Of a stretch of 64,000 bases of DNA, positions 39,961-43,326 are shown piece by piece; positions within the stretch are counted from its first letter, which is position 1, and each line of letters starts with the position of its first letter. The stretch is from the NCBI RefSeq assembly GCF_024502345.1, contig NZ_JALDNN010000001.1; one strand, written 5' to 3'. Made by a program: the position numbers and the translations under genes. The DNA is from Escherichia coli. Lineage in GTDB: Bacteria > Pseudomonadota > Gammaproteobacteria > Enterobacterales > Enterobacteriaceae. The notes beneath the pieces are model-generated. The model was given only the letters and a program-made list of their open reading frames with translations, had not been told where the DNA came from and did no database searches.

Positions 39961-39999
39961 TATCCAGCGGATCAAGAAAATTCGTTGGATATTTTTTTT
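39961..39999 (+). terminator. rho-independent terminator after topB
   Basis: atccagcg ... cgttggat stem (one mismatch) followed by T8. Confidence 0.6.
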
Positions 40000-40047: not shown

Positions 40048-41036
40048 ATGAAAAAAGTTTTATTACAAAACCATCCTGGGAGCGAGAAGTATTCTTTTAA
40101 TGGCTGGGAAATATTTAATAGTAATTTTGAACGGATGATTAAAGAAAATAAGGCCATGCTGCTTTGTAAGTGGGGGGGGGGTATTTAACATGTGTTGTCG
40201 CTGTAATGTTTGTATTCGCAGCGATAACATCCAACGGTTTGAATGAAAGAGGCCTGATTACCGCGGGATGCTCATTTCTTTATCTATTAATTATGATGGG
40301 GCTTATTGTTCGGGCCGGTTTTAAAGCAAAAAAAGAACAGCTGCATTATTATCAGGCTAAAGGTATTGAGCCGCTCAGTATCGAGAAATTACAGGCGCTA
40401 CAATTGATCACACCTTATCGATTCTATCATAAGCAATGGTCTGAAACGCTGGAGTTCTGGCCGCGAAAGCCTGAACCTGGCAAAGATACCTTCCAATATC
40501 ATGTGCTTCCTTTTTACTCGATCGATATCATAAGTAAAAGACGCGAGTCTTTAGAGGATCAATGGGGTATCGAAGATAGCGAAAGTTATTGTGCCTTAAT
40601 GGAGCATTTTCTTTCTGGCGACCATGGAGCCAATACCTTTAAAGCAAACATGGAGGAAGCCCCAGAGCAGGTTATCGCCTTGTTGAATAAATTTGCTGTT
40701 TTTCCCTCTGACTATATCTCTGATTGCGCTAATCATAGCTCCGGTAAATCCTCGGCGAAGCTAATATGGGCGGCGGAATTATCATGGATGACCTCGATAT
40801 CAAGCACAGCTTTTCAAAACGGGACAATTGAAGAAGAACTGGCCTGGCATTATATAATGCTTGCTTCTCGAAAGGCGCACGAGTTGTTCGAAAGCGAAGA
40901 AGATTATCAAAAAAATAGTCTAATGGGATTTCTTTACTGGCATATCTGCTGCTATCGCAGAAAGTTAACGGATGCTGAACTTGAAGCGTGTTATCGTTAC
41001 GACAAGCAGTTTTGGGTGATGCTGCCAACTTACTGA
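40048..41036 (+). pseudogene. ynjI: DUF1266 inner membrane protein gene, disrupted twice (poly-G frameshift and IS1 insertion near 3-prime end)
   Basis: Frame from ATG 40048 (MKKVLLQNHPGSEKYS...CKW) stops at 40188; downstream ORF 40170..41036 is in a different frame; the two join in-frame if the G10 run were G8 or G11; last 6 codons lie inside the IS1 inverted repeat. Confidence 0.75.
40172..40181 (+). repeat. G10 homopolymer tract inside ynjI
   Basis: Ten consecutive G read directly at 40172..40181. Confidence 0.95.
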
Positions 41037-41069
41037 TTTAGTGTATGATGGTGTTTTTGAGGTGCTCCA

Positions 41070-41345
41070 GTGGCTTCTGTTTCTATCAGCTGTCCCTCCT
41101 GTTCAGCTACTGACGGGGTGGTGCGTAACGGCAAAAGCACCGCCGGACATCAGCGCTATCTCTGCTCTCACTGCCGTAAAACATGGCAACTGCAGTTCAC
41201 TTACACCGCTTCTCAACCCGGTACGCACCAGAAAATCATTGATATGGCCATGAATGGCGTTGGATGCCGGGCAACCGCCCGAATTATGGGCGTTGGCCTC
41301 AACACGATTTTCCGCCATTTAAAAAACTCAGGCCGCAGTCGGTAA
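41070..41345 (+). CDS. insA: IS1 InsA
   Basis: 91-aa [46 protein letters not shown]... Confidence 0.93.
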
Positions 41346-41767
41346 CCTCGCGCATACAGCCGGGCAGTGACGTCATCGTCTGCGCGGAAATGGACGAACA
41401 GTGGGGATACGTCGGGGCTAAATCGCGCCAGCGCTGGCTGTTTTACGCGTATGACAGGCTCCGGAAGACGGTTGTTGCGCACGTATTCGGTGAACGCACT
41501 ATGGCGACGCTGGGGCGTCTTATGAGCCTGCTGTCACCCTTTGACGTGGTGATATGGATGACGGATGGCTGGCCGCTGTATGAATCCCGCCTGAAGGGAA
41601 AGCTGCACGTAATCAGCAAGCGATATACGCAGCGAATTGAGCGGCATAACCTGAATCTGAGGCAGCACCTGGCACGGCTGGGACGGAAGTCGCTGTCGTT
41701 CTCAAAATCGGTGGAGCTGCATGACAAAGTCATCGGGCATTATCTGAACATAAAACACTATCAATAA
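41264..41767 (+). CDS. insB: IS1 insB frame; expressed as InsAB' transposase by -1 frameshift from insA
   Basis: 167-aa ORF in -1 frame relative to insA. Confidence 0.88.
41321..41327 (+). promoter_or_regulatory. A6C programmed -1 ribosomal frameshift motif of IS1
   Basis: AAAAAAC at insA/insB frame overlap; insA reads LKNSGRSR*, -1 frame reads KKLRPQSV... Confidence 0.8.
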
Positions 41768-41880
41768 GTTGGAGTCATTACCCAGTTTTGGGAGCACTAC
41801 AGTAAGAAATGCCGTTGGCCCATAAGAAATGTTCCCTGGGGAGCATCATCCGTTAAATACTCATAAACGCCTGAAATTTT

Positions 41881-41982: not shown

Positions 41983-43326
41983 TTAAATCACACCCTGCGC
42001 CAGCATCGCATCGGCAACCTTCACAAAACCGGCAATGTTCGCGCCCTGCACGTAGTTGGTTTGCTCACCTTCACCACCATGCTCAACACAGGCATGGTGG
42101 ATATCCAGCATGATGTGATGCAAACGTGCGTCAACTTTCTCGGCTTTCCAGCCCAGGCGCGCAGCGTTTTGCGCCATTTCAAGGCCTGACGTTGCTACAC
42201 CGCCAGCATTAGCCGCTTTACCCGGTGCAAACAGTACGCCTGCCTGCTGGAACAGTTCAGTCGCTTCGATGGTGGTCGGCATATTTGCCCCTTCGGCGAC
42301 GGCTTTAACGCCATTGGCGATAAGCTGATGCGCGGCGTCAACATCCAGTTCGTTCTGGGTAGCGCAAGGCAGGGCGATATCAACCGGTACAGACCACGGC
42401 TGTTGGCCTTCGAGATAGACCAGACCAAATTCTTTGGCGTAATCTGCCACTCGACCATCGCGGCTGGCTTTGATTTCGATAAGACGTGCCAGTTTCTCTT
42501 TCGTGAATCCGCTTTCATCAACTACAGTGCCGCTGGAGTCTGACGCAGTGATCACCCGAGCACCAAATTCCATCGCTTTTTCGATAGCGTACTGGGCGAC
42601 GTTGCCGGAGCCAGAAACGGAAACGCGCATCCCTTCAAAACCCATACCGTGGCGTTTTAGCATTGCTTCTGTGAAATAAACCAGACCGTAGCCGGTAGCT
42701 TCCGGGCGAATAAGACTGCCGCCAAATGAAAGGCCCTTACCGGTGAAGACGCAGGCGGTATTGTTGGAGAGCTTTTTCATCATCCCCGCCATAAAGCCGA
42801 CTTCACGACCACCAACCCCGATATCACCTGCCGGAACGTCGGTATCCGCGCCCAGGTGGCGATACAGTTCAGTCATCAGCGCCTGGCAAAAACGCATCAC
42901 TTCACCTTCGCTTTTTCCTTTTGGATCGAAATCGCTGCCGCCTTTACCACCGCCCATCGGCAGAGTAGTCAGGGCATTTTTGAAGGTTTGTTCGAAGCCG
43001 AGGAATTTAAGAATGGAGAGGTTAACTGACGGATGGAAACGCATACCGCCTTTGTACGGGCCGATGGCAGAGCTGAACTGCACACGCCATGCACGGTTGA
43101 CCTGTACCTGATTGCGATCATCAACCCATACCACGCGAAACTGGATCACGCGCTCCGGTTCAACCAGACGCTCCAGTAATGACATCTGGCGATATTTTGG
43201 ATTTTGTTCAAGAAAAGGCCAGAGTGTGGTCATTACTTCACGAACGGCTTGCGCGAACTCGGTTTGATTCGGGTCGCGCTTTTGGACATGGTTGAGGAAT
43301 GACTCCAGAGAATATGTCTGATCCAT
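41983..43326 (-). CDS. gdhA: NADP-specific glutamate dehydrogenase
   Basis: 447-aa ORF MDQTYSLESFLNHVQKRDP... Confidence 0.97.
   Translation of the reverse strand: MDQTYSLESFLNHVQKRDPNQTEFAQAVREVMTTLWPFLEQNPKYRQMSLLERLVEPERVIQFRVVWVDDRNQVQVNRAWRVQFSSAIGPYKGGMRFHPSVNLSILKFLGFEQTFKNALTTLPMGGGKGGSDFDPKGKSEGEVMRFCQALMTELYRHLGADTDVPAGDIGVGGREVGFMAGMMKKLSNNTACVFTGKGLSFGGSLIRPEATGYGLVYFTEAMLKRHGMGFEGMRVSVSGSGNVAQYAIEKAMEFGARVITASDSSGTVVDESGFTKEKLARLIEIKASRDGRVADYAKEFGLVYLEGQQPWSVPVDIALPCATQNELDVDAAHQLIANGVKAVAEGANMPTTIEATELFQQAGVLFAPGKAANAGGVATSGLEMAQNAARLGWKAEKVDARLHHIMLDIHHACVEHGGEGEQTNYVQGANIAGFVKVADAMLAQGVI

Follow-up and report, generated by a model that had tools for sequence, protein, structure and literature searches.

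A ten-guanine run in Escherichia coli ynjI, probably one of several lengths of a hypermutable tract in a decaying gene

The ynjI gene of the Escherichia coli genome described here is broken by a run of ten guanines, which raises the question of whether the run is a true inactivating lesion, a site that is prone to slippage or an error in the sequence. The initial annotation offered these as separate options; they are not exclusive, and what we found speaks for a hypermutable tract whose present length is real and was inherited. We consider it very probable that G10 is one of the lengths taken by a hypermutable G-run in a dispensable ynjI, and that the gene is decaying through slippage.

The DNA that was analysed is a single stretch of 64 kb (hereafter the window), in which ynjI lies between topB and gdhA, as it does in the orthologous RefSeq loci; individual loci are given L numbers where they have to be told apart. 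The features needed for the argument are these:

40048-41014, plus strand: 5' portion of ynjI, the first 322 or so codons once the frame is repaired, encoding a DUF1266 inner-membrane protein
40170-41036, plus strand: -1-frame ORF holding the remainder of YnjI and then running on into IS1, ending in KQFW-VMLPTY and a stop
40172-40181, plus strand: G10 homopolymer, running from the second base of W42 through G43 and G44 to the second base of codon 45
40186-40188, plus strand: premature TAA, at which the original frame ends with a 46-aa product
40192-40230, plus strand: imperfect inverted repeat (RNA hairpin) within the coding sequence of transmembrane helix 1
41007-41014, no strand assigned: left copy of the 8-bp target-site duplication CAGTTTTG, read from the sequence
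41015-41782, plus strand: IS1, 768 bp, with the insA and insB' ORFs, sitting in ynjI codon 323
41783-41866, plus strand: right copy of CAGTTTTG (41783-41790) and the ynjI 3' remnant
41983-43326, minus strand: gdhA, downstream of the ynjI remnant

The tract stands in the context AAGT-G10-TATTTAA, with exactly ten G, and in the frame of the ynjI start codon (ATG, 40048) the codons around it are TGT AAG TGG GGG GGG GGT ATT TAA, that is C40 K41 W42 G43 G44 G45 I46 and then the stop. The original observation that a ten-G run interrupts ynjI, with a stop ending at 40188, is therefore confirmed in the sequence, the length of the tract being out of frame (n = 1 mod 3). It is the only homopolymer of nine or more bases in the window, for which 0.06 runs of G10 or C10 are expected and in which one appears in 5 of 100 shuffles. 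Tandem Repeats Finder returned nothing over the tract region, mononucleotide runs lying outside what this tool reports.

Downstream of the tract the protein was said to continue in another frame, and the -1-frame ORF bears this out as far as the IS1; there, however, the ORF runs into the insertion sequence, and the last 24 codons of ynjI lie beyond it. The GTG at 40170 that opens this ORF is a mechanical ORF call only, and no Shine-Dalgarno-like sequence was seen directly upstream of it when the sequence was read by eye. Setting the tract to G8 and taking out the IS1 gives an uninterrupted YnjI of 346 aa, and G11 gives a protein of 347 aa, which the RefSeq annotation of strain S19-651 presents as intact, so that either length does restore a single ORF, as had been predicted. 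The 346-aa length also agrees with that of K-12 YnjI, but K-12 itself does not carry G8: its site is GGGGGTTTT, read as TGG GGG TTT TAT (W-G-F-Y), with the short and stable run G5TTTT. Reference YnjI proteins stay collinear with the window's protein through the tract, where K-12 has WGFY and the window WGG(G)Y.

The second lesion in the gene is the IS1. An IS1 end, GGTGATGCTGCCAACTTACTGAT, begins at 41015, where the terminal sequence reads GGTGATGCTGCC..., and both ends of the 768-bp element can be read, together with insA and insB' and the 8-bp direct duplication. The inserted portion matches IS1 copies of E. coli genomes and is the one IS1 copy in the window. When it is spliced out with one duplicate and the tract is repaired, the 346-aa ORF is recovered; the 3' remnant ends …EHYSKKCRWPIRNVPWGASSVKYS and a stop at 41864-41866. 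No complete RefSeq E. coli genome carries the same junction; it is found in several draft E. coli assemblies (L025-L028), and the IS1-fusion protein of this lineage has been deposited as E. coli WP_306422446.1. Three Shigella-labelled YnjI fragments (P0097, P0099 and P0114) are without the substitutions of the window's protein. A Shigella origin of the window, which an IS1 might suggest, was rejected on these grounds: the single IS1 copy, the E. coli deposit and the fragments. In this genome, then, ynjI is a pseudogene with two lesions, the poly-G frameshift and the IS1, and because the IS1 also inactivates the gene the length of the tract is functionally moot here. For annotation, the tract should be regarded neither as a sequencing error in need of being 'fixed' nor as a recoding site.

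The profile searches were made with the protein of L018, an intact G8 allele closely related to the ynjI of the window. Pfam DUF1266 (PF06889) matches residues 167-338 with E = 7e-26, and the NCBIfam PRK11380 equivalog (NF008480, 'hypothetical protein') scores 667 bits against a cut-off of 386. YnjI has two predicted transmembrane helices in addition to this domain, and positively charged residues stand N-terminal to them and again past helix 2, which by the positive-inside rule suggests that the DUF1266 domain is cytoplasmic; on that prediction YnjI is not an obvious surface target. A PADLOC defence-system search with YnjI gave no match and a PDB sequence search no solved relative.

The gene is dispensable. 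It is present in about 3500 of 5426 complete E. coli genomes, and in 1923 of them (35%) even a sensitive blastn search found no match, which makes ynjI an accessory gene. Many of the copies that do exist keep other lesions once the tract has been repaired. The nonsense change W246* (TGG to TAG) recurs in many E. coli genomes and metagenome contigs (L010, L017, L034, L037, L057, L058 and L078 among the loci compared), on G5T4 and poly-G backgrounds alike, which implies that the mutation either arose repeatedly or is an old polymorphism carried about by recombination. A T5-to-T4 frameshift at alignment column 653 (about window 40699-40703) is common to L003 and L005, which differ in the G-run itself (G8 against G7); the gene of L002 has a Q-to-stop change, strain 100416 has an IS1 elsewhere in ynjI, and a laboratory strain with IS10 in ynjI has been described (PMC10044804). 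Alleles that are out of frame at the tract and otherwise intact are also numerous (L004, L009 and L020-L024 are examples). The absence of ynjI from 35% of genomes and the frequency of other lesions together point to relaxed selection. The window's copy has five private SNPs in comparison to the other alleles, three of them protein-changing (A121T, D156Y and I257T); these substitutions would fit relaxed constraint, though their numbers are small.

That the tract varies in length on an otherwise fixed background is seen directly. Alleles L018 (G8), L004 (G10) and L006 (G11) are identical over all other positions of ynjI, and L009 (G9) is a single SNP away from this haplotype. Relatives of the window, found through an exact look-up of the identical TopB protein, are 99.83-99.97% identical to it over 6.5 kb, and the same picture holds amongst them. 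Three that have the window's IS1 junction, L025 (G11), L026 (G9) and L028 (G10), are mutually identical over the 6.5 kb, and a fourth with the IS1 present, L027, has G11; the relatives without IS1 at the site have G8 (L023), G9 (L020) or G10 (L021, L022 and L024). G10 is found in five of the ten closest relatives (L021, L022, L024, L028 and L029), and, as the commonest state in its own lineage, the G10 of the window was probably inherited. The variation between IS1-bearing relatives implies that slippage went on after ynjI was already dead. At least five tract length changes are implied amongst the window's relatives, against 24 SNP columns in 6.5 kb, from which we roughly estimate that the tract may change some thousand times faster than the average base. 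The poly-G alleles fall on at least two haplotype groups, which may reflect recombination or recurrent origin, the informative sites being few.

Comparison of the tract in related genomes, which had been proposed as a check, reveals lengths from G6 to G14 in thousands of assemblies, in keeping with the earlier suggestion of a slippage-prone site. Approximate counts in complete E. coli genomes, from exact matches to short queries of each length, are as follows:

G6: 30-55 complete genomes
G7: 38-60 complete genomes
G8: about 460-480 complete genomes
G9: 180-200 complete genomes
G10: 92-118 complete genomes
G11: 9-20 complete genomes
G12: 3 complete genomes
G13: 1 complete genome

All of these come from assemblies, in which homopolymer lengths are error-prone (most of all in long-read-only assemblies), and part of the spread is artefact. 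G5T4 is found in about 70% of the complete genomes that carry ynjI and in 38 of 54 metagenome contigs, and a longer G-run or a substituted derivative in about 990 complete genomes, or 28% of carriers. G8 accounts for more than half of the pure tracts, as would suit a G8 founder state but also a degree of purifying selection on the intact frame; from G8 upwards the counts drop steadily and the in-frame G11 is not in excess. The out-of-frame share of pure tracts is about 42-47%, and a frameshift at the tract is present in about 10% of the complete genomes that have ynjI, such copies being labelled 'frameshifted' or pseudogene by RefSeq in many strains. An exact-sequence look-up in a collection of 15 billion proteins, which includes the Illumina-based Logan and ENA assemblies, returned the truncated products of G7, G9 and G10 on at least 1000 contigs each and those of G6, G12 and G13 on 848, 285 and 66 contigs; the full-length products of G8, G11 and G14 were on at least 1000, 509 and 4 contigs, respectively. 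Full-length WGCY, WGLY or G17 proteins and a G8-plus-IS1 fusion were absent from this collection.

These data bear on whether the G10 call is itself a sequencing or assembly error, the true tract being G11, G8 or G9. Most sequencing platforms have difficulty with runs of ten G, the G9, G10 and G11 states on identical flanks in the closest relatives could partly be assembly noise, and control homopolymers at the same loci (A6, A7, T5, T8 and the K-12-type G5) deviate too. They do so, however, in only 1-7% of sequences, for which reason assembly error alone does not explain the spread of lengths. Nor is G10 a length unique to one assembly: besides being the commonest state in the closest lineage, it occurs in about 100 complete genomes, members of the same clonal set agreeing with each other (three O169:H41 genomes; AR436 with AR_0374), and its 46-aa product is on at least 1000 contigs. 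Strain ETEC-2264 (CP023349) is an example of G10 without the IS1. We therefore regard an erroneous G10 as unlikely, and even if the length were wrong the IS1 would inactivate ynjI.

How a run of this length may have come about can be read from alleles that survive. They form a graded series in which the total length of the block is constant:

GGGGGTTTT: WGFY, G5T4 (L016)
GGGGGGTTT: WGVY, G6T3 (L084-L087; protein on 69 contigs)
GGGGGGGTT: WGGY, G7T2 (L048)
GGGGGGGGT: WGGY, G8T (L018)
GGGGGGGGG: WGGD, G9 (L014; protein on 64 contigs)

Outside the block, the G6T3 allele L086 is identical to the G5T4 allele L016, and the G8T allele L018 is one SNP away from L016. Interrupted variants also exist, namely G5TGGT (WGWY, L013) and GGGGAGGTT (WGGY, L015). 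We take G5T4 as the older state because the divergent allele L011 also has it. This allele, from E. coli ET201, is a mosaic, in which the first 130 nt or so, through G5TTTT, are ordinary ynjI and the rest is about 70% identical, a pattern that implies a recombination breakpoint at or beside the tract; L011-like alleles are in about 14-20 complete genomes.

The history that we propose for the decaying gene would begin with ancestral G5TTTT (W-G-F-Y), from which successive T-to-G changes at the boundary of the run would have lengthened it through G6T3, G7T2 and G8T to G9. Polymerase biochemistry suggests that such boundary changes may arise by transient misalignment, or dislocation, a form of mutagenesis by DNA polymerases at run boundaries that was reportedly described by Kunkel and co-workers. 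As in dislocation mutagenesis, the base beside the ynjI run turns into the base of the run, which grows longer while the total length stays the same; the difference is that the ynjI series consists of natural alleles only, for which independent ordinary transversions are also possible. Once the run had reached eight bases or more, replication slippage (slipped-strand mispairing) would add or remove single G's, in variation that is probably neutral, and at G10 the ribosome would be put out of frame to yield the 46-aa peptide.

A different reading would make the poly-G a contingency locus, with YnjI on at G8 and G11 and off at G7, G9 and G10, and with selection maintaining this reversible switch. 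Like the poly-G genes of Campylobacter jejuni, pgtA and lgt of Neisseria and the tracts of Bordetella pertussis, ynjI has a G-run of at least eight bases early in its ORF, a length that differs by one nucleotide between very close relatives, and in-frame and out-of-frame states that are both common. The repeat is a hypermutable simple sequence within an ORF, ranging from G6 to G14, whose length shifts the frame; ON and OFF lengths occur on identical haplotypes; and many OFF alleles are intact apart from the tract. The gene, moreover, encodes an envelope protein from a promoter that BglJ-RcsB activates and H-NS/StpA in part represses (PMC3950696). Against this, G11 (about 9-20 complete genomes) is not raised above G10 (92-118) or G9 (180-200), the ORF is often not intact apart from the tract, with second lesions that include W246*, frameshifts and IS insertions, and the tract still changes in relatives whose ynjI has been cut by IS1. 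As noted, 35% of genomes lack the gene. Its ancestral and majority allele is without the long tract, unlike the poly-G contingency loci, from which ynjI is also set apart by in-frame lengths that are not in excess, by frequent other lesions, by a product that is not known to be surface-exposed and by a host, E. coli, that is mismatch-repair-proficient. The predicted cytoplasmic DUF1266 domain offers no obvious surface target, no known defence system matches and no paper that we found describes a ynjI switch. Since nothing points to a surface antigen, we rate adaptive phase variation as very unlikely, and it would likewise be a long shot to see in the tract a newborn contingency locus, in which a BglJ-RcsB-controlled inner-membrane protein is switched by slippage of the G-run. 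Were the ON and OFF states selected, ynjI would offer a rare case of slipped-strand phase variation at a core locus of an enterobacterium that is proficient in mismatch repair, and were the contingency locus true, living alleles would still show how the switch was born, by stepwise extension from G5T4 to G8T. Repeats in coding sequence are something that the species E. coli avoids (PMC3315296).

That G10 alleles yield full-length YnjI by recoding, through a -1 frameshift on G GGG GGG or through RNA polymerase slippage that adds one G, is exceedingly improbable, since the resemblance to a dnaX-type -1 site (a downstream -1 frame, an in-phase X XXY YYZ heptamer at 40173-40179 that permits perfect re-pairing but is a formal match only, and a stable hairpin 12 nt 3' of it) is set against a two-frame layout that is not conserved, most alleles being single 346-aa ORFs, a hairpin older than the tract, a 12-nt spacer where the usual distance from heptamer to structure is 5-9 nt, an all-G heptamer of a kind not known, as far as we are aware, to be an efficient shift site in E. 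coli, and an IS1 that would truncate any product in this genome. Transcriptional insertions in E. coli, for their part, prevail in runs of A and T (PMC5574713). A -1 frameshift aided by the hairpin was rejected on the lack of conservation of the arrangement among alleles, and the likeness to dnaX looks like coincidence. The hairpin itself, at 40192-40230, has a dG of -18.6 kcal/mol (z = -4.7; 0 of 200 shuffles) and begins 10 nt downstream of the G-run. The K-12 allele has it too, whereas in the divergent L011 it is much weaker; its presence in G5T4 alleles implies that it did not evolve for recoding, and it could pause polymerases near the tract.

The decaying, slippage-prone ynjI fits instead the known class of homopolymer-frameshift pseudogenes of E. 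coli, with which it has in common a frameshift in a mononucleotide run and a non-essential gene, to which insertion sequences are added here. It differs from them in its unusual breadth, G6 to G14, and in the survival of intermediate alleles. A survey of homopolymers in Escherichia found that longer tracts are enriched in pseudogenes and that conserved intragenic tracts have no more than eight bases (PMC8928963); the survey does not mention the ynjI locus, and our literature search found no paper describing the tract. No new biological mechanism is opened by the ynjI tract. What is most noteworthy about it is the preserved series of alleles in which the growth of the run is displayed. More generally, the locus preserves in small compass the natural history of a mutational hot spot, from its birth to the ruin of the gene that contains it. 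The tract might be used as a fast-evolving typing marker, as a natural reporter of homopolymer slippage rates or as a benchmark for the homopolymer accuracy of assemblies. A second, shorter homopolymer lies close by, a T8 run at 39992-39999 between topB and ynjI, ahead of the ynjI ATG, and it is mildly polymorphic, with T8 in 74 loci, T7 in five and T6 in one.
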